DNA of 16,355 nucleotides from a virus (IMGVR_UViG_3300029822_000764:1-16355); one strand, 5' to 3'; shown: positions 1,799-16,355, numbered from the stretch's first letter. The notes: generated from the letters alone by a model not told the origin. Numbers and translations are program-made.

Positions 1799-2605
1799 AT
1801 GAATAATAAAATAAAAAAACAATATCCTGAATGGATAAATAATGGAGTTAAATATGATAGTTGCTTAACAGATGACCTTGACAGTTTCTTTAGTTGTTTA
1901 CTATTAGAAAAAACACTAAATTATAAAATAACACATTTTTATAGTTTCGATAAGTTATATGAAGATATTACATATGTAAAAGACAGGCAATTAATAGGTG
2001 TTGATATGGATATGGTAAAATTTAACGCATGGGGGAATCACGTCTTAAAGAGTTATAATCCAAATTCTGCAAACATTAATAATATTTTAAGAATCGGGAC
2101 TGATACATATAAGTGGAAATACGCAGGAAGTGTTTTGCTCCAGATAATTAGTTACTATGATTTAGATATAAGTATGTTAACAGAAGAATGTTTAATGATT
2201 TTATTGGCTGTGGACACCACATTTAAAATGTATGGTTTTGATAAATCTAATTGCAGGAGATACCTAGTAGATATATTGGAATTACCAGAACTATATAAAC
2301 TATGTGAAAAACACAAACGAAATGAATTTTATAACTTAATAACAAAATATAATTTACATAAGAAAATATTTATAAATAAAGATGGCATGTTACAAACTGA
2401 AATTGATTTAAAATCATTAGAAGTTTTGTTTAATATGTCTTTTGTTTTACCCAAAAATCAATTTAAATTAATTAAAAATTATACAAACATTGGTTTAACT
2501 GCATATCAATATGATTTAAAAAAAGATGAATTTAAGGAACAGGGTAAAACATTATTCACAAAGGCATGGACTAGCAATTATTATATTAAATTATCTTATT
2601 ATTAA
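1799..2605 (+). CDS. Hypothetical protein, 268 aa (acidic motif clusters DDLD, VDMD, GNH, AVD)
   Basis: This is a long ORF in AT-rich DNA, which is unlikely by chance. There is no Shine-Dalgarno sequence before ATG 1799, and an in-frame stop at 1775 rules out an upstream start. I cannot recognise any family by eye. Confidence 0.6.
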   Translation: MNNKIKKQYPEWINNGVKYDSCLTDDLDSFFSCLLLEKTLNYKITHFYSFDKLYEDITYVKDRQLIGVDMDMVKFNAWGNHVLKSYNPNSANINNILRIGTDTYKWKYAGSVLLQIISYYDLDISMLTEECLMILLAVDTTFKMYGFDKSNCRRYLVDILELPELYKLCEKHKRNEFYNLITKYNLHKKIFINKDGMLQTEIDLKSLEVLFNMSFVLPKNQFKLIKNYTNIGLTAYQYDLKKDEFKEQGKTLFTKAWTSNYYIKLSYY

Positions 2606-2630: not shown

Positions 2631-3131
2631 ATGACAATAACTAAAATGTTAAAAGAAATTAATGAAGCAGTAAGTATAGGACAGCAAATTGTATTGGATG
2701 GAGAAACAGGCCTAATGGAAGTTTTGTTTTGTAATGGACAAATGATTTTAAAAATACAAGATGGACAAGAATGTTTTAATTATAGCTGTAAAGTAACTAA
2801 TGAAAATTCTATCTCGAATCTTATTATACAAGAATTAATAAATGAAATATACCAAAAGGACTTATTGCCCAGAAAATATGAAATAAAAAGAATTAAAAAA
2901 TATTTGGATAGACAATTAGAAAGAATTTTTAAGTGGAAAGCAAAAATTGTTATGATGAAAAAACAAAAAGTTTATGATTTTGGACTGGAGCATAAAGTTA
3001 CACAAAAGCTAAATGAAATAAATGAAAACATATATATTAATTGGAAAACAATGGATGATATTAAGGCGGATTTATATGAGTATGAAGTTTTCAAGGATAT
3101 ATTGTTTCAATCTTTAAAAGAATTACCATAG
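2631..3131 (+). CDS. Hypothetical protein, 166 aa, with a Lys/Glu-rich helical C-terminal half
   Basis: GAAAGGAAG lies upstream of ATG 2631, 25 nt after the previous stop, so it probably forms an operon with 1799-2605. A terminator follows. Confidence 0.65.
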   Translation: MTITKMLKEINEAVSIGQQIVLDGETGLMEVLFCNGQMILKIQDGQECFNYSCKVTNENSISNLIIQELINEIYQKDLLPRKYEIKRIKKYLDRQLERIFKWKAKIVMMKKQKVYDFGLEHKVTQKLNEINENIYINWKTMDDIKADLYEYEVFKDILFQSLKELP

Positions 3132-3152: not shown

Positions 3153-3189
3153 GGAGTGTCCTCCTGTAATGAGGATGCTCCTATTTTTA
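3153..3189 (+). terminator. Rho-independent terminator closing the 1799-3131 cassette
   Basis: GGAGTGTCCTC pairs with GAGGATGCTCC: 11 bp including two G-U pairs, with a 7-nt loop. TATTTTTAT follows. Confidence 0.7.
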
Positions 3190-3209: not shown

Positions 3210-3389
3210 ATGATTAATTTTAATATTAATAAAAAATATTTGGCTGATGCGTTGAGTTGGCTGGGCTTTAGATATTACAAATACAACACAAGTTCTGGAG
3301 TTATTTATTCCTTTGAAAGGACAGACGAATTTCTGGAAGCCATGAAACAACTAATTGAATTTAAAAAAATATATGGAAAAAAGTATTAG
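3210..3389 (+). CDS. Small 59-aa protein, DUF5659-like (by eye)
   Basis: AAAGGAGAG lies 8 nt upstream of ATG 3210. Translation: MINFNINKKYLADALSWLGFRYYKYNTSSGVIYSFERTDEFLEAMKQLIEFKKIYGKKY. The pattern L..L...GF......G..Y.FE.T.EF.EA is typical of small Firmicute phage and plasmid proteins of that family. I prefer it to the overlapping minus-strand ORF 3144-3350. Confidence 0.5.
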   Translation: MINFNINKKYLADALSWLGFRYYKYNTSSGVIYSFERTDEFLEAMKQLIEFKKIYGKKY

Positions 3390-3580
3390 TACACGCCCAG
3401 TATAAATATGTGTAAGAACTCTAAAGAAACACATCAAAAAATATATAGTAAATAATCTTAAAAATATAATAAATATCAATAAAAAATAAGTATTAAAAAT
3501 CAAAAATAAAATTTCCCGACTTTAAGAAATAAGAAATACAAAATATTAAAAAATTAATTATATAAGGAGATAAAAAAATT

Positions 3581-4531
3581 ATGATACATACAATTGAGTA
3601 TGCAACAATTATGATAGATGATATTGAATTAATAAAAGATAATTTCAAGATAACAAAAGAAGAAAAACAATTAGTATATTATAGAAAATATAGGGCATTA
3701 GATTTTAAATATTATCAAGTATATAATGTATTACATATAAAAATAAACTTAAATAGATTATTAGATAAAGATGTAATAGTGGAAGGTGATTATTCTAAAG
3801 TATTAAAAGAATATAAGAAACAATTTTATGAGTTTGGATTCTACTGGACTAATCCAACTTATCAATTAAATCGAGTGGATTATAAGAGTGATATAATTAC
3901 AGAAAATAAGGATATATATATAAAATTATTGAAAAAGGCATCTAATAATTATCGTGCATTAAAACAATATAGTAAATATAAATCTTCTGTCTATTATAAT
4001 TCTAAAAGCATGAATATAAATGTTTATGATAAAGAGCAAGAATTAATTGATACAGATAGTGAATTATTAGTTGATATTAATAAATATAAAAATATGTTAA
4101 GATTTGAAGTTCAACTAAAAAGAAATAAATTATATTATTTAGAAAAGACATGGGGACAGACCAGAGAATTAGTAAATTATTTTCATCAAAAAGATCACGA
4201 TTACTGGATTAATTATGCTTTAAAAAAAATAATATATTGTGGTGATTATTATAATTTATATCACAGCAAAAAAATCTTGCAGGAGCATTACAGTAAAAGT
4301 ATGGTGGGCAAACTAACTGAATTGCAAAAAGACATTTCTATAAATGGAATTAGTGAAGCAAAGAAAAATTATACAAGTGCAACATTCAATAATCATATCA
4401 AGAAATTAGAATCTGTGGTTAATCCTATATTAATACCAAAAGGCGAGGGCATAACACATTTAAAGAACATATTTAATTTTACAGATGAAAATATTTATCT
4501 ATTAAATGAATATTGTTTAAGAGCATCTTAA
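3581..4531 (+). CDS. Rep_trans-like protein (rolling-circle replication initiator or MOB_T-relaxase-like), 316 aa
   Basis: AAGGAG lies upstream. Three spaced motifs recall the Rep_trans / phage CRI layout (R.D...D, Y.K, R.E.Q): LNRVDYKSDI (aa 96-105), NINVYDKEQE (aa 145-154) and LRFEVQLKR (aa 173-181). The ORF itself is solid, but the family call is by eye only. Confidence 0.5.
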   Translation: MIHTIEYATIMIDDIELIKDNFKITKEEKQLVYYRKYRALDFKYYQVYNVLHIKINLNRLLDKDVIVEGDYSKVLKEYKKQFYEFGFYWTNPTYQLNRVDYKSDIITENKDIYIKLLKKASNNYRALKQYSKYKSSVYYNSKSMNINVYDKEQELIDTDSELLVDINKYKNMLRFEVQLKRNKLYYLEKTWGQTRELVNYFHQKDHDYWINYALKKIIYCGDYYNLYHSKKILQEHYSKSMVGKLTELQKDISINGISEAKKNYTSATFNNHIKKLESVVNPILIPKGEGITHLKNIFNFTDENIYLLNEYCLRAS

Positions 4532-4616
4532 GCCATTTTAAGGTGTACAAGGTATATAAACATACAATACTATTTGTTTTATATAAAATTACATATACAT
4601 AAACATATAAAAATTA

Positions 4617-4649
4617 TAGGTGGGCGTAAATTCCCATCTATTTTATTTA
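4617..4649 (+). terminator. Rho-independent terminator after 3581-4531
   Basis: TAGGTGGG (4617-4624) pairs with CCCATCTA (4633-4640): 8 bp with one G-U, and an 8-nt loop. TTTTATTTA follows. Confidence 0.6.
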
Positions 4650-4718
4650 TATAACCGATTCCTTTAAACGGATTCGGTGCATTATTGTCAGACAAATAAT
4701 AAAGAAAGGAACGATTAT

Positions 4719-4949
4719 ATGGAAGCAATATTTACACAAATAATTAATAGTAGTCCAATACTAGGAGTAATGTTAGTGTTCTGGTATTTTAACAGACAAG
4801 ATTATAAAAGTTTTGTTGATAGAGTCCAGGCAGAAAATGCAAATAGAGAAAAGAATTATCAAGATACAATCACAACATTATCTAATAATTTAAATATTGT
4901 GAAAGATGTGCAGCAGGATATAGAAGAAATAAAATATAAATTAAAATAA
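4719..4949 (+). CDS. BhlA/UviB-family holin-like small membrane protein (76 aa from ATG 4719)
   Basis: Translation: MEAIFTQIINSSPILGVMLVFWYFNRQDYKSFVDRVQAENANREKNYQDTITTLSNNLNIVKDVQQDIEEIKYKLK. It has one N-terminal TM helix and a charged coiled C-terminus ending in an ..D.EEIK.KL pattern, as in B. subtilis BhlA and C. perfringens UviB. ATG 4719 has a GAAAGGA RBS. The GTG 4677 in the track has none and sits in a hairpin. Confidence 0.7.
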   Translation: MEAIFTQIINSSPILGVMLVFWYFNRQDYKSFVDRVQAENANREKNYQDTITTLSNNLNIVKDVQQDIEEIKYKLK

Positions 4950-9959: not shown

Positions 9960-11672
9960 ATGGTAAATGACTACTTTAGTATAAAAGATACATATAATAC
10001 AATGCTTACTATGTTCTCAAAAGATTTTACAATAAATAATATCATAAAGCAAGGATTATTAAAAGAAATAAATGATACAAATAGTTCGATAGATGAAAAA
10101 TATCTTTTAACTGATACAGAATTATCACAGGGAAATATCATTAAATATAATAATATGAATTATATGATTATTACGAAGAATGAGAATATTAATAATATTT
10201 ATAATAAATACACAATTAGAAAATGCCCATATAATGTAAATTTTGTAATAGGTGGCATCATAAATGCAATTCCTTCGATAATTGAAACAAAAACACTGGA
10301 TTTATCATCTTCACAGTATATTGTATTACCAGATGGAAAAATCGTGGTCACAATAGAAAGAAATGATATAACGAATACCATTAGTGTAAATGATAAATTT
10401 ATAAAGATGGGATTTCCTTGGATGATAACAGCAATAGACAAGTCACTGGAGGGACTTATATTATTACACGCTGATATACAACAAATTGGCTCTGGTGATG
10501 ATATTACTAATGAAATTCCTTCAGGTGCTTCATTGGCTTCATATAGTTTTACAATTACACCTAGTTCAACAACAGTAAGAAAAGGAGATACACAACAATT
10601 AAATGTAAGTGTAAGCAGAAATAACACTGTACTCACTAATCCTAATCTTAAATATTCAAGTAGCAACACTAATATACTTACAGTGTCTAATTCTGGATTG
10701 ATAACAGCAATAGAAGAGGGTACTTGTAATATAACTGTTACCTGTATAGAAGAATATAATTCTGGAAGTACAACAGAAACAGCAACAGTTACACCATTAC
10801 ATAATTATGTATTAAGTGTAAGTCCTACGTCTGTTAGCTTAGATACAGGAAGTACACAACAATTAATTCCTACGGTCACAGATTATGGAATTGATGTCAA
10901 AAATGCTACTTTTTCTTATGTATCAGGTAATACAAGCATAGCCACAGTGTCTAATTCTGGATTAGTTGAAGCCATAGGAGCAGGAAATACAACAATTATG
11001 TGTACTTTCATTGGAGAGGATTCACAGACATATACACAACAAATACCAGTAGGAGTTGAATTGGCTCATATTTATGTATTAAGTGTAAGTCCTAGCAGTA
11101 TTTCTATTGATAATAATAGCACCCAACAATTGACAGCCAGTGTCACAGATAAAGGAATTACTGTATCTAATCCAACAATAACATATTCAAGCAATAATAC
11201 GAGTATAGCAACAGTTAATTCTACAGGTCTTATTACTGCAACAGGTGTTGGGAACTGCAATGTTACGTGTAGTTTTGTGGGTGAGGATTCACAGACATAT
11301 AGTCAAGTAATTTCAACAACAGTTAATGCTGTAGTAGCTAAAACAATTAAATTCTCAACGAATTACAACGGAGATACAGAAGATATTACAAATTATACCG
11401 ACAATGGAAATCCTTATAAAGTATTACAAGGTGATACAATTACAGTTACAGTATACGCATTTCAAACCAGTACACAATCAAATGATACGTTTACATTTTC
11501 TTTTAGTGGTGTAACTGCTAGTTATTACACAAAAACAACACCAGATGGAAACCATTTTACAGTCCATAATGTTAATGGTGATGGAGGAGAATATTTAATG
11601 TGTCAAGCCACAAGTAATTTAGATTCTACACTAAATAGTCATATATGTATACGATTGGCTGGAGAATGGTAA
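9960..11672 (+). CDS. Virion surface protein with three tandem Big_2 (bacterial Ig-like group 2) domains, 570 aa
   Basis: The three repeats are at aa 195-278, 283-366 and 372-456. Each shows the Big_2 signature (..V.P.S.S...G.TQQL...V......N....YSS.N..IATV...GL..A...G...). They are flanked by an unassigned N-terminal domain of about 190 aa and a C-terminal beta-rich domain of about 110 aa. Confidence 0.8.
   Translation: MVNDYFSIKDTYNTMLTMFSKDFTINNIIKQGLLKEINDTNSSIDEKYLLTDTELSQGNIIKYNNMNYMIITKNENINNIYNKYTIRKCPYNVNFVIGGIINAIPSIIETKTLDLSSSQYIVLPDGKIVVTIERNDITNTISVNDKFIKMGFPWMITAIDKSLEGLILLHADIQQIGSGDDITNEIPSGASLASYSFTITPSSTTVRKGDTQQLNVSVSRNNTVLTNPNLKYSSSNTNILTVSNSGLITAIEEGTCNITVTCIEEYNSGSTTETATVTPLHNYVLSVSPTSVSLDTGSTQQLIPTVTDYGIDVKNATFSYVSGNTSIATVSNSGLVEAIGAGNTTIMCTFIGEDSQTYTQQIPVGVELAHIYVLSVSPSSISIDNNSTQQLTASVTDKGITVSNPTITYSSNNTSIATVNSTGLITATGVGNCNVTCSFVGEDSQTYSQVISTTVNAVVAKTIKFSTNYNGDTEDITNYTDNGNPYKVLQGDTITVTVYAFQTSTQSNDTFTFSFSGVTASYYTKTTPDGNHFTVHNVNGDGGEYLMCQATSNLDSTLNSHICIRLAGEW
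10542..11327 (+). repeat. Intragenic tandem repeats encoding the three Big_2 domains (267-nt period for copies 2 and 3)
   Basis: TATGTATTAAGTGTAAGTCCT is identical at 10806-10826 and 11073-11093. GAGGATTCACAGACATATA is also shared by copies 2 and 3. Copy 1 is more diverged. Confidence 0.8.
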
Positions 11673-11711
11673 AAAATAAAAAGGGATATTATTTTGTATC
11701 TAATATCCCCC
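11671..11711. terminator. Hairpin terminator between the convergent Big_2 and rep genes (the U-tract is on the minus-strand side)
   Basis: GGGATATTA (11683-11691) pairs with TAATATCCC (11701-11709): a perfect 9 bp. It is preceded on the + strand by AAAAAATAAAAA, which gives a U-tract for the minus-strand transcript. It may act in both directions. Confidence 0.6.
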
Positions 11712-11812
11712 TAGAACGTCCATAGATGCCCCATATCGTGTTTTAAATTACTTAGACATATAATTATACCTTTTTAAAATTAATGTGTCTTAAAATGGCT
11801 GTATGGATTTTA

Positions 11813-12835
11813 TTACCATCCCAATAATCCTTTTTCTAGTTCTTTAATGTCTTTAGTATCATATTTTCTTTGTTTAAAATTGTCAAATGTGGTGGTCTTT
11901 GTATTCTCCTTTGGTTCATTAAATCCTTTTAAAAGTTCTCTCATATAGCCAATAATATTATCAACATTTTTATTAATAGCATAGTCGTAGCATTTTTTTA
12001 TCAACTCAATATTATTTTTAGAGTCCTCTAGTAAACAAGTGGCTTCAAGTTCTGTAATAGTATGCTTTGTAAATAATGCTTGGACTTCTTTTATTAAATC
12101 CTGTTTTTGTTGTGTTTCTGATGTAACTGCTCCTGCTGCTATTTCATTTTTATTATTCTTTATTGTAAACTTAATACTTGTTACCTTCCGGCCTGTTTTT
12201 ATTTCTTCAAACTTAAAGGATATATCACTTTTATCTAATTCCTTTTGTGCCTGAAGAATAACTTTCCTTTTAAAATCACCATATAATTTATATTCATGTG
12301 GCTCTATACAAAACATAGTTCTTAATGCTTCAATACTTGCGGTTCTTTCTCCAATTCCTTCATATTGCTTTAATAATTCATATATTCTACATGAATAGTT
12401 GCTATTAAATGTTATTACTTTATCTAATGATAACTTTGTAAATCTATTTTTTAACTGCAATAGATAAGGTTTTAATTTATCATCAAAACAGAGTTCAATA
12501 CTACCATCATTAAAATATTCTGCGGAGGATAGCCATTTTGTTTTTAAAATTGAATTCTCCTTTACAATAACTAACTCCCTATTTCTTAAACTGTCTATAT
12601 GTTGGCTTAATTCGTTAAAACTAATTTTATGTTTTGATAAAATATTATTTATTTCAGTTTGCGTAAATCTATAACTTTTAAAGTCAATATCATCTTTACT
12701 TATTTTAGTAGTTAGTATATAAATTAATCTTTGCTCTTGCAGATTTAATTTATATGATGCTTCAATTATATAGTTAGATTTTACCATCAAGGTTTTATAT
12801 TTTAATAAATCACCCCTAGTAACCATTTTTATCAC
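11813..12835 (-). CDS. Rep_3 / RepB-family theta-replication initiator
   Basis: The N-terminus ...VKSNYIIEASYKLNLQEQRLIYILTTKISKDD... is the classic Rep_3 (initiator RepB) signature. The second winged-helix half has SCRIYELLKQYEGIGERT. Iterons lie 60-155 nt upstream. The start is either GTG 12835 or, more likely, ATG 12826 (AGGGTGA RBS). Confidence 0.85.
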   Translation of the reverse strand: MIKMVTRGDLLKYKTLMVKSNYIIEASYKLNLQEQRLIYILTTKISKDDIDFKSYRFTQTEINNILSKHKISFNELSQHIDSLRNRELVIVKENSILKTKWLSSAEYFNDGSIELCFDDKLKPYLLQLKNRFTKLSLDKVITFNSNYSCRIYELLKQYEGIGERTASIEALRTMFCIEPHEYKLYGDFKRKVILQAQKELDKSDISFKFEEIKTGRKVTSIKFTIKNNKNEIAAGAVTSETQQKQDLIKEVQALFTKHTITELEATCLLEDSKNNIELIKKCYDYAINKNVDNIIGYMRELLKGFNEPKENTKTTTFDNFKQRKYDTKDIKELEKGLLGW

Positions 12836-12895
12836 CCTATACCATTTTATATTATGTCTTTTAAGTATGTCAAGTCATATTTAAAGTCATAATTA

Positions 12896-12990
12896 GTACG
12901 AATTGGTCATATTTCAGTACGAATTGGTCATATTTCAGATTATAATTAGTACGAATTGGTCATATTTCAGTACGAATTGGTCATATTTCA
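12896..12990. repeat. Replication origin iterons: four 21-bp direct repeats GTACGAATTGGTCATATTTCA
   Basis: Exact copies occur at 12896-12916, 12917-12937, 12949-12969 and 12970-12990. They form two abutting pairs separated by the 11-nt GATTATAATTA, equivalent to a 53-bp tandem duplication including ATAATTA. A partial copy (GTCATATTT) is at 12874-12882. Confidence 0.85.
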
Positions 12991-13049
12991 GTTAAATAAC
13001 TATAGATATATCAATGGTTTGTGATATGCCTAAAATATTAAAACTTGTT

Positions 13050-13460: not shown

Positions 13461-14216
13461 CTATGAATCTATCCTATATAATAACTCATAATATAAATCA
13501 TTAAATGGTTTACCATAAGTCATATTATATTCTTGAATTGTTTTATGTAATGCCACTGATTCTTTATATTTTACACTATCATAAATTATTGTATCAAACA
13601 ATTTAGCTTTTAATTCTTCTTGTAATACTTCATTAAATTGTTTATTAAATAGGGTTCTTTTTTTAAATCTATTTCGCAGTATTCCTAAGAGTTTTAAATC
13701 GTCAATTAATCCATTTTCTTTTAAATTATTTACCACTTTATCAACCATGTTTAGTCCCTGTAATGCTGATGTGCTATTGTCTATTATTTCAATATAATAG
13801 TTACTCATGACCAATGAATTTTGAACTGTTATTCCTAAGAATGGACTATTATCTATAAGAATATAATCAAAGTCATTGTCAAACTGGGCAAACTTGTTTT
13901 TCAGGATGCTTTCCCTATTTCTTTTGTTGTATAACTCATTTTCAAGTATGGCACTGTCAATAGTATTGCTTATCACATAGATGTATTCATTATAGATACT
14001 AATACAATCATTAAAGGTAACTTTAGGATTAGTATATAAATCATACATATTATATTGGCTATTTATATTGAGTATTTGAGTTATGTTACTTTGACTATCA
14101 TTATCTAGTATTAATACTTTACGTTTTAATTTTGACATAGCTCCAGCCAGATTAATTGTAGATGTGGTCTTTCCAACTCCACCCTTAACATTCAGTAATG
14201 TTATTATTACACTCAT
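13461..14216 (-). CDS. parA: ParA/Soj-family partition ATPase (type Ib size, 251 aa)
   Basis: It has the deviant Walker A motif LNVKGGVGKTTSTINLA and then VLILDNDSQSN. Walker B-like ILIDNSP is also present. Confidence 0.9.
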   Translation of the reverse strand: MSVIITLLNVKGGVGKTTSTINLAGAMSKLKRKVLILDNDSQSNITQILNINSQYNMYDLYTNPKVTFNDCISIYNEYIYVISNTIDSAILENELYNKRNRESILKNKFAQFDNDFDYILIDNSPFLGITVQNSLVMSNYYIEIIDNSTSALQGLNMVDKVVNNLKENGLIDDLKLLGILRNRFKKRTLFNKQFNEVLQEELKAKLFDTIIYDSVKYKESVALHKTIQEYNMTYGKPFNDLYYELLYRIDS

Positions 14217-14316: not shown

Positions 14317-14572
14317 TATTATTAGCGACATATTTTTTAACTTCATAGAGCCATTTTAAGCCACTTCTATTTTTAGGCATACAATTACACTACTTCAAAT
14401 TTTAAGGCACGTTAAATGCGATTTTTTGAGAAATGGACACTTGAAAAACGCTGATAAAACCGTATTCTTAAAAATCAAAAAATCAGGGGTGGATAGTCAT
14501 AAAAAATAAAATTCTAACGGTTTAGAAATGTGCTGAAACTTATAAGTTTACTGGGCTTTTTAAGTAATTATT

Positions 14573-15575
14573 CTAAAAATAAATAAGGTTTATTATATGA
14601 GATAGAAAAGATATTTTTTAAAATGTTAAGAAAATAGAATCATATAAAAATCAAGGATATAACAATGTGTTTAGATACCCATATCCAAAAATAAATAAGG
14701 TTACTTATAGGGGAAGAGAGAGCAAAAAATAAAATTCTCGCAAATAGAAATTAAAATGTTGACCAAATAGAACCATATAAATATTAAGGTTATATCAATA
14801 CTTTATAACAGTGTACTTGAAATTGCTTATAGTAGATAAGATAAAAATGTGAAGTAATAGAAATTAAAATGTTGACCAAATAGAATCATCTTAAAATCTA
14901 TTGGTATTATTTAGTTTTCAGGTAATGCTCCTAAAAATAAATAAGGTTACTTTAAGGGAGAGAGGAAATAAAAATCGGACGAAATAGAAATTAAAATGTT
15001 AAGAAAATAGAAATGTGTAAATATCAAAGTTATAGCAACACTTTACATGACATAGAAATTTATAACTTTTTTACAAAGTGTAGTATATTATTTATATATC
15101 AATAGATACAGCCATTTTAGCTAATGTGTCTCTATAGGAAGAAAAAATGTTGACCAAATAGAAACACCAATAGCGAGAAAATAGAATCCAATGTATATTA
15201 AGCATTTATCAAGGTTTTTAAGAAGATAAAAAAAGTTTATTATATAGAGAATGAATAGAAATTATTTTTGCTAGACAAATAGAAATTAAAAATGTTGACC
15301 AAATAGAAACCTATAATTATCAAGGTTATAACAATGTATATAAGATAATAAAAAAAATTTATTATATGAGTAATGGAAGAAAAAATATTCAACTAAAAAA
15401 TTAGTCCGATCAGGACAACCGCTGATATATATTAGTTTCCACGCCCATGAGGAAAAGACGTTATATGATAATAAAAAATCCGAAAAATAGAAAAACACTG
15501 ACAACATTGATATTACTAGTGTTACAAGTTATTTTGTATGTTTATTTATCAGTAATGGAAAGAAGATAAAACTGT
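14573..15575 (+). repeat. Array of six degenerate 113-151-bp same-orientation repeats with a 31-bp promoter-like core
   Basis: The core AAATAGAAATTAAAATGTTGACCAAATAGAA is at 14742-14772. Near-identical copies are at 14856-14885, 14982-15012 (TTAAGA variant) and 15277-15308 (one extra A). Partial copies are at 14620-14639 and 15144-15163. There are secondary modules CTAAAAATAAATAAGGTT (14573, 14686, 14931) and TTTATTATATGAG (14589, 15358; variant at 15236). No credible ORF is present. Confidence 0.8.
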
Positions 15576-16266: not shown

Positions 16267-16355
16267 CAAAGATAGTTATACAAAAGAAGAAGTAGAGAAA
16301 TTGTTTACTGACTATGAGAGCAATTACAATACTAAAATATTGGATTTTGAAGCAA
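16256..16355 (+). CDS. Phage scaffolding protein, 5' portion (continues at nt 1 across the circular junction)
   Basis: AGGAGG (16242-16247) lies 8 nt upstream of ATG 16256. The frame runs off the window end and continues in frame at 2-421. Confidence 0.7.
   Translation, partial: MKFDKDSYTKEEVEKLFTDYESNYNTKILDFEA
16270..16355. repeat. Terminal overlap, copy 2 (identical to 1-86)
   Basis: Base-for-base identity with nt 1-86. Confidence 0.9.

Follow-up and report, generated by a model that had tools for sequence, protein, structure and literature searches.

A small capsid-encoding plasmid with an iteron-type replicon also bears an intact gene for an initiator-type protein of a quite different kind (P0001, 316 amino acids), which is a real and very divergent member of the Rep_trans/gpII superfamily, belonging to an unmodelled clade outside PF02486 and PF05144 proper. 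The gene is under selection and separately transcribed, and a conserved cis element lies next to it. From its sequence and modelled fold, the protein is predicted to nick and rejoin DNA as an active, metal-dependent transesterase of the Rep_trans/gpII (Phage_CRI) superfamily, and we judge the chances to be about evenly balanced that it acts as a rolling-circle nicking initiator and so provides a second, Rep_3-independent replicon, possibly with a dual use. The fold, the motif set, its conservation, the structure of the cassette and the distribution of the family are shown by the analysis.

The window (the whole stretch of 16,355 nucleotides that was analysed) represents a complete circle of 16,269 bp: nt 1-86 are identical to 16270-16355, and the junction from 16269 to 1 is spanned by contigs of three sequencing runs. 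Its head genes encode a major capsid protein of the SU10 type, a large terminase and a portal of the SPP1 type, and further genes encode a BhlA holin, a Big_2 protein, an Arc-like protein, ParA and the Rep_3 initiator (Table 1). The window as a whole finds no match by megablast in the phage collection. A variant of the element diverged by about 5%, from another study and sampled ten years apart, retains the region of the nickase gene; in that variant (run X4), 192 other letters replace most of the holin gene (4749-4947), and the repeat array at 14756-15174 also differs. Within a gene-poor region of 1.85 kb, six promoter-like units (AAATAGAA…TTGACCAAATAGAA…TATAAC-like) follow one another at spacings of 113-174 nt (14588-15340).

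Table 1. Features of the window, and loci in related contigs that hold other genes at the corresponding place
Feature	Position	Strand	Remarks
268-aa gene	1799-2605		
166-aa gene	2631-3131		
Intrinsic terminator	3153-3181	+	Ends upstream two-gene unit; left boundary of cassette
59-aa gene (phrog_32519)	3210-3389	+	Immediately upstream of variable slot in all relatives of the element, often duplicated
TATAAAT box	3402-3408	+	Putative -10 of the gene's own promoter; common to pSMBb, L024 and L025
TTTCCCGACTTT	3512-3523	+	58-69 nt before start; candidate cognate (nick/binding) site or leader-RNA stem
Shine-Dalgarno AAGGAG	3564-3569	+	11 nt 5' of ATG
Rep_trans/gpII-superfamily nicking-initiator gene (P0001, 316 aa)	3581-4531	+	Intact ORF, homologues, fold, motifs
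RVDYKSD	3872-3892	+	Residues 98-104
VYDK	4022-4033	+	Residues 148-151
RFEVQLKR	4100-4123	+	Residues 174-181
Putative active site	within 3581-4531	+	H3; R98-x-D100 (plus D104); Y149-x-K151-x-x-E154; R174-x-E176
GCCATTTTAAG 11-mer	4532-4542	+	Directly after nickase stop codon
Intrinsic terminator	4616-4641	+	85 nt after stop; right boundary of transcription unit
Holin gene	4677-4949		
Rep_3 (WH1+WH2) theta-type initiator	11813-12835	-	The element's other initiator
Four iterons (AGTACGAATTGGTCATATTTCAGT), about 21-24 nt	12895-12992	.	Upstream of rep_3
ParA gene	13461-14216	-	
Group A genes	L060:5999-6928, L064:5091-6020, L058:3098-4060		
Group B genes	L061:5579-6766, L063:5763-6959, L065:5845-6996, L059:5156-6223, L066:5677-6732		

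Family, fold and active site

A preliminary description, made from the sequence alone, had drawn attention to this reading frame and to three spaced motifs of Rep_trans style within it, all of which are present where they were described. The frame is not a chance one, because its homologues retain both its length and its start: 42 near-length homologues were found (28-69% identity), and nearly all members of the family begin with M-I-H-T at the extreme N-terminus. An exhaustive search collected 342 cluster representatives (50% identity clusters) at E<=1e-3, and 121 at E<=1e-10. The clade is a large Bacillota family, comprising hundreds of 50%-identity clusters, for which the profile libraries have no model.

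Direct searches with the protein are blank. P0001 matches nothing in NCBIfam, in PHROGs or, even with the threshold raised to E<=10, in Pfam; phmmer and hmmsearch against PDB sequences, with P0001, A1 and A2 as queries, return no Rep protein; tblastn of P0001 finds no match in the phage collection, and a scan of IMG/VR with the family alignment finds no relative. Among the plasmids searched, the only match is pSMBb of Clostridium acetobutylicum. The significant match to PF02486 or PF05144 on which the preliminary description made its reading depend is missing for the protein itself, and the kinship is borne out only through its relatives: out of 117 diverse relatives, 55 match PF05144 (gpII/Phage_CRI; best E 4.4e-8), 20 match PF02486 (Rep_trans; best E 7.5e-7) and 5 match TIGR01629 rep_II_X, and homologues P0013, P0017, P0025 and P0032 carry a precomputed PF05144 annotation. 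Annotation pipelines mostly call members of the family hypothetical; an identity at the level of mechanism is gained here for a gene that is blank in every standard profile library.

The AlphaFold (AF2) model built on the family alignment (pLDDT 94.8, pTM 0.90) consists of ten strands arranged as two five-strand modules, followed by a helical C-terminal part; it displays the crescent sheet of two such modules, with a topology like that of the TATA-binding proteins (TBPs), by which Rep_trans proteins are recognized. All six significant PDB hits returned by Foldseek are Rep_trans initiators (4cwe, 4cwc and 4cij; prob 1.0, E 4.5e-7 to 3.5e-4), and the VIA structure aligner likewise places 4cwe first (Z 11.7, 225 residues aligned, rmsd 4.2), followed by 4cwc (Z 11.3) and 4cij (Z 8.9), which represent RepDE/RepSTK1. 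TBPs come next in VIA at Z ~7, well below these; the topological likeness of the Rep_trans fold to TBP has been described by Carr et al. (PMC4797284).

Alignment of the family profile with pT181 RepC by hhalign (E 7.5e-5, prob 62%; E 0.005 by pairwise BLAST) sets R98xD100 opposite RLD, Y149DKEQE opposite Y191NKKQE and R174FE opposite RVE of RepC. The putative catalytic tyrosine is Y149, which aligns with the catalytic Tyr191 of RepC (residue 140 of an aligned fragment that starts at residue 52) and is invariant in 117/117 relatives. Fold, tyrosine and motif set all match Rep_trans/gpII, so the superfamily assignment made in the preliminary description was right, and with it the claim that the element encodes two unrelated initiator-type proteins, the other being a Rep_3 protein whose iterons and ParA are real.

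The remaining positions of the putative active site are nearly as constant among the 117 relatives: R174 117/117, E176 116/117, R98 115/117, K151 113/117 and D100 112/117. The pairs R98/D100, Y149/K151 and R174/E176 occupy the positions of motifs I, III and IV as defined in PMC5714925, and mutagenesis of RepD and RelSt3 has found these positions to be catalytic or metal-binding (PMC4797284, PMC6499999, PMC5714925). Motif III (YxKxxE, Y149-D-K151-E-Q-E154) lies on strand 144-150, and motifs I (RxD) and IV (RxE) are present with two of the three acidic metal ligands. The third, the Asp of motif N' on the first strand, is absent from P0001, in which His3 stands instead; among the 117 relatives this residue is His in 93, Asp in 19 and Glu in 1. 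Such a swap of His for Asp is typical of a metal-ligand position, and His3 could still bind metal. Motif II (T/S-x-Y/E-x-G) is retained only in part, as S136-V-Y138-Y-N140 on strand 136-140, which hhalign places opposite T-K-Y-F-G of RepC, its Gly being absent. An INPILIPK tail and a GDYY motif are conserved as well. The protein opens directly with strand 2-10, an N-terminal HTH being absent.

The cassette, its upstream element and the slot it occupies

The nickase gene and the 59-aa gene before it form a unit flanked by two intrinsic terminators. Upstream of the start codon, TTTCCCGACTTT is invariant in four close relatives (the window, pSMBb and two metagenome contigs) though the proteins are only 66-68% identical, and the locus of a 46%-identical homologue, on a metagenome contig (L026), has TTTTTCCCGAGC at the matching position. 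Distant homologues (27-33% identity) share an arrangement at the same position in which an ATAAAT box comes first, (Y)GGGAAAA and TTCCC(R) follow with ~50-60 nt of spacer between them, and TTCCC(R) ends 10-25 nt before the ribosome-binding site. TTTCCCGACTTT corresponds to the right arm (TTCCCR) of this inverted repeat, and the TATAAAT box of the window is equivalent to the ATAAAT box that precedes its left arm. The whole conserved element, whose spacer has its own hairpin, lies at 3402-3523 in the window, at L004:9710-9808 and at the other loci of alignment A5.

The repeat arms pair in the minimum-energy fold of 22/26 sequences, with paired changes from C-G to U-A in six sequences and CAGGAAA/TTTCCTG in one. 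In-register pairing is found in 70.7% of cells against <=60% for slid controls; the covariation does not exceed column shuffles (68/500 of which reach the score), so that the arms are equally compatible with a leader RNA, with a DNA hairpin that can be extruded and with half-sites for a protein. Rfam recognizes no family in the window at E<=1, nor in eight loci at the gathering score. The canonical nick site of Rep_trans and MOB_T proteins is a GC-rich stem with CT'AA in its loop (PMC9371924). When perfect stems of >=5 bp were sought that include >=3 G-C pairs and enclose 6-16 nt of loop, a single site emerged, 11683-11709, at the convergent gene ends; no GC-rich hairpin with a CT'AA loop occurs near the gene, nor at the matching place in pSMBb, L024, L025 or L026. 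By virtue of its conservation, the upstream element is a candidate cognate site, and 3512-3523 offers a concrete position for it.

The 11-mer that follows the nickase stop codon (GCCATTTTAAG/CTTAAAATGGC) has three exact copies in the window (4532-4542, 11789-11799 and 14350-14360) against 0.49 expected. One sense-oriented copy stands directly behind the stop codon of each initiator gene (at 11789-11799 in the case of Rep_3), the third copy lies upstream of parA, and an inverted pair of it flanks the Rep_3-ParA module. Because the 11-mer also occurs in relatives of the element (L059, L060, L061, L065 and L067), it is a motif of the host lineage that did not come with the cassette, perhaps a module boundary or a regulatory site.

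The relatives of this head-only element are ten IMG/VR contigs that share with it the scaffold, the capsid protein, a 260-aa gene, a small terminase-like gene, TerL, the portal (76-81% identity), a connector and the Big_2 protein. The 268-aa gene is likewise present in all of them (35-47% identity) and on that ground resembles a core gene; what was fetched of these contigs lacks the 166-aa gene, the holin, Rep_3, the Arc-like gene and ParA. The nickase gene is missing from 8-10 relatives with the same packaging genes, which makes it an accessory gene of this lineage. Downstream of the 59-aa homologues, of which there are often two, each relative carries one of two mutually unrelated reading frames, either group A (291-296 aa, phrog_9501) or group B (351-398 aa, phrog_36702), both being PHROGs of unknown function. 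Pfam has no family for either, and the nickase-family profile detects neither.

Group A yields a confident model (pLDDT 90.6) with two winged-helix domains, and the only PDB entries that cover both are the replication initiators RepE54, Rep 8ac8/8aan and RctB, at modest scores (Foldseek E 5e-3, prob 0.97; VIA Z ~6). Its language-model neighbours include clusters partly annotated RepL, a lead that finds no support from Pfam, and directly 3' of all three group A genes lies a pair of direct repeats at a spacing of 32 bp (AACACTTAGCGATACA is one example). On this modelled likeness, group A is probably a RepE-like initiator with an unannotated iteron replicon; no other replication gene was seen in the relatives. 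Group B homologues of 548-570 aa are common in metagenomes. One group B contig also contains a 107-aa ORF (L061:12561-12884) with weak similarity (E 2e-5, measured against few sequences) to the helical segment at the C-terminus of the nickase family, a likeness that may reflect a shared DNA-binding helix motif or chance. With moderate confidence, we infer that the place after the 59-aa gene is the replicon slot of the lineage and that the nickase cassette has here replaced the resident initiator; with moderate confidence also, the cassette would have arrived with its own promoter and leader, which it shares with pSMBb.

Distribution and possible roles

Homologues of the nickase occur on plasmids and in chromosomal islands. 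Plasmid pSMBb (11.1 kb) encodes a 68%-identical homologue together with a Rep_3-type initiator and a small serine recombinase; on L026, a 5.5-kb fermentation-metagenome contig (1-5585) that is probably a circular plasmid because its ends overlap by 55 nt, a Rep_3 homologue lies immediately upstream of the nickase homologue. Rep_3 thus accompanies the nickase on 3/3 complete plasmids (the window and two further clostridial plasmids, pSMBb and L026). The N-terminal strand of the L026 homologue (…EIDTLSLS…) lacks an in-frame ATG, GTG or TTG start; the gene may use an atypical start codon, contain a sequencing error or be decaying.

In 20 genomes of Bacillaceae or Clostridia, chromosomal homologues lie within islands, where they adjoin cargo and an integrase of the serine or the tyrosine type. 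Several islands share one gene order: rlmH comes first, then a large serine recombinase or two of them, then an HTH gene and the nickase homologue, and finally cargo such as type I/III restriction-modification and AIPR genes; a tyrosine integrase is used in others. Islands of the former, SCC-like type in Bacillaceae (L004, L005, L009, L013, L014, L017, L018 and L020) lie in the region between ~6 kb before and 9 kb after position 10001. In these, rlmH encodes a SPOUT methyltransferase, the recombinases (490-620 aa) combine Resolvase, Recombinase and Zn ribbon domains, some cargo is transposase, and the set is completed by a divergent pair made up of an HTH gene and a ‘c3’ gene (160-250 aa, with no assigned function). 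The c3 gene adjoins the nickase homologue on pSMBb as well; no counterpart of it was found in the window. The family also marks integrase-bearing defence islands, and to learn whether its members replicate or mobilise DNA would explain how such islands spread.

The element shows that an iteron/ParA replicon and a nicking initiator can occur together on one plasmid that encodes a capsid. In the reading that we consider about evenly poised, Rep_3, its iterons and ParA would see to low-copy maintenance, and the nickase would drive a separate rolling-circle replicon: the protein would bind its cognate site, most plausibly the conserved stretch with TTTCCCGACTTT that immediately precedes the nickase gene; Tyr149 would cut one strand and remain linked to the 5' end; from the 3'-OH, host helicase and polymerase would continue synthesis round the circle; and a unit-length strand would finally be resealed by the enzyme. 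The same nick could serve as oriT if a conjugative element is present. A role as second replicon is the most likely one because the gene stands where relatives have what is probably a replication initiator, and replication is favoured over transfer by that slot together with the closer kinship to gpII-type replication proteins. Against this stand the missing direct profile match of the protein, the lack of a GC-rich CT'AA hairpin near the gene, and chromosomal islands of integrase, nickase and cargo that resemble mobilisable elements as much as replicative ones; the slot argument itself depends on the modest group A scores and on a RepL lead that Pfam does not confirm. That all three complete plasmids also carry Rep_3 suggests, moreover, that the nickase is perhaps not the vegetative replicon.

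The same observations lend some weight to a pure mobilisation relaxase of the MOB_T kind, which would nick an oriT so that the strand is exported by the coupling protein and pore of a co-resident conjugative element, Rep_3 being the sole replicon; we consider this a possible role, on the unlikely side. The fold and motifs are common to MOB_T relaxases, some of which (the NicK type) have no N-terminal HTH (PMC6499999), and a separate Rep_3 initiator accompanies the homologues on each complete plasmid. The layout in the 20 genomes, with integrases and cargo adjoining, is the classic one of integrative mobilisable elements (PMC5357655), and a conserved non-coding element just upstream of the gene is where an oriT is usually placed. 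However, the replication family PF05144 is matched by more relatives than is PF02486 (55 against 20), the nic hairpin with CT'AA that MOB_T and pT181 systems conserve is missing, and the gene sits in a slot that in relatives probably holds a replication initiator. Nor was any TcpA/FtsK/VirD4 coupling-protein or type IV secretion (T4SS) gene recognized among the proteins of the window or, with conserved neighbours annotated, among the conserved neighbour clusters within +-9 kb at the 20 genomic loci. Proteins of the superfamily often both replicate and transfer DNA (PMC5714925, PMC5357655).

A broader synthesis, which we put forward tentatively and think rather unlikely to hold in its entirety, joins these strands. 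The window would be one of a group of head-only clostridial plasmids with an exchangeable replicon slot, filled here by a His-for-Asp nickase of the ‘MIHT’ clade that recognizes the (Y)GGGAA...TTCCC(R) hairpin, and the plasmid would have two modes of replication (maintenance by iterons and ParA, amplification by rolling circle); the clade at large would be the engine of self-replication or transfer for defence islands of Bacillaceae that target rlmH and carry ccr-like recombinases.

The preliminary description had assigned theta replication to quiescent maintenance and rolling-circle replication to the supply of concatemers for the terminase. A lytic-phase replicon of this sort, switched on at induction, would suit an element that has terminase, portal and capsid genes besides a separate maintenance replicon, and whose nickase cassette is independently terminated; P1 offers a precedent for a split between plasmid and lytic replication. 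The RepC/gpII superfamily yields unit-length circles and not concatemers. Initiators of the RepC and gpII type stop after one round (PMC9371924 on RepC*), the family is found mostly, indeed overwhelmingly, on elements without packaging genes, and the 8-10 relatives that possess the same packaging genes do without the protein. On these three grounds (the products of the enzyme class, the whereabouts of the homologues and relatives that package without the gene) the concatemer scheme is unsupported, and we regard a packaging replicon as improbable. Least probable of all is a passenger or decaying gene, or a nickase with some different task, for instance to interfere with other replicons: the gene is accessory in its lineage and lies in a hypervariable region, but its frame is full-length with every catalytic residue intact, its promoter/leader block and Shine-Dalgarno sequence are conserved with relatives at 66-68% protein identity, and its region persists in the ~5%-diverged variant sampled ten years apart.

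Relation to known systems

The closest characterized proteins are RepC and RepD (of pT181 and pC221) and RepSTK1 (PF02486; 4cwe, 4cwc and 4cij), which have the same crescent ten-strand sheet with a C-terminal helical domain, the same RxD, YxKxxE and RxE motifs on separate central strands (Y149 corresponding to Tyr191 of RepC), a similar size (~310 aa) and no HTH in front. P0001 differs from them in its low identity by structural alignment (13-16%) and in giving no match to PF02486, in the replacement of the motif N' Asp by His3, in a motif II that ends in N and not G, and in its INPILIPK tail and GDYY motif; its gene has no GC-rich IR-II hairpin with CT'AA, and its plasmid has another replicon besides. 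The gpII/CRI proteins of filamentous phages (Phage_CRI, G2P N-terminal, PF05144; TIGR01629) are the family matched by most relatives (55/117) and have the same motif arrangement (PMC4797284, PMC5714925), whereas P0001 itself has no direct match to them and is hosted by a plasmid with a tailed-phage-type head module, not by an inovirus.

The MOB_T relaxases NicK (ICEBs1), Orf20 (Tn916) and RelSt3 (ICESt3) belong to the same superfamily, with the same catalytic Tyr and acidic ligands, and both transfer and replicate their own elements (PMC6499999, PMC9371924, PMC5714925). Homologues of P0001 adjoin integrases as these do; in contrast to relaxases of the RelSt3/Orf20 type, P0001 has no N-terminal HTH, no linked coupling protein or T4SS and no CT'AA nic hairpin. 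The chromosomal islands resemble staphylococcal SCC and defence cassettes, except that a gene of Rep_trans type takes the place of the SCC helicase operon.

At the level of the whole element, the nearest likeness is to phage-plasmids with two replicons, of which P1 is the type. P1 splits its replication between a plasmid system (RepA/oriR) and a lytic one (RepL/oriL), and its RepL is not known as a nickase of the Rep_trans type. As in P1, a packaged plasmid here carries an iteron replicon linked to partition and a second, unrelated initiator; unlike in P1, the second initiator is a Rep_trans-type nickase, and the division of labour between the two would hold by analogy. Three features of this member are notable: its His-for-Asp active-site variant, its conserved upstream repeat and its recurring partnership with Rep_3.
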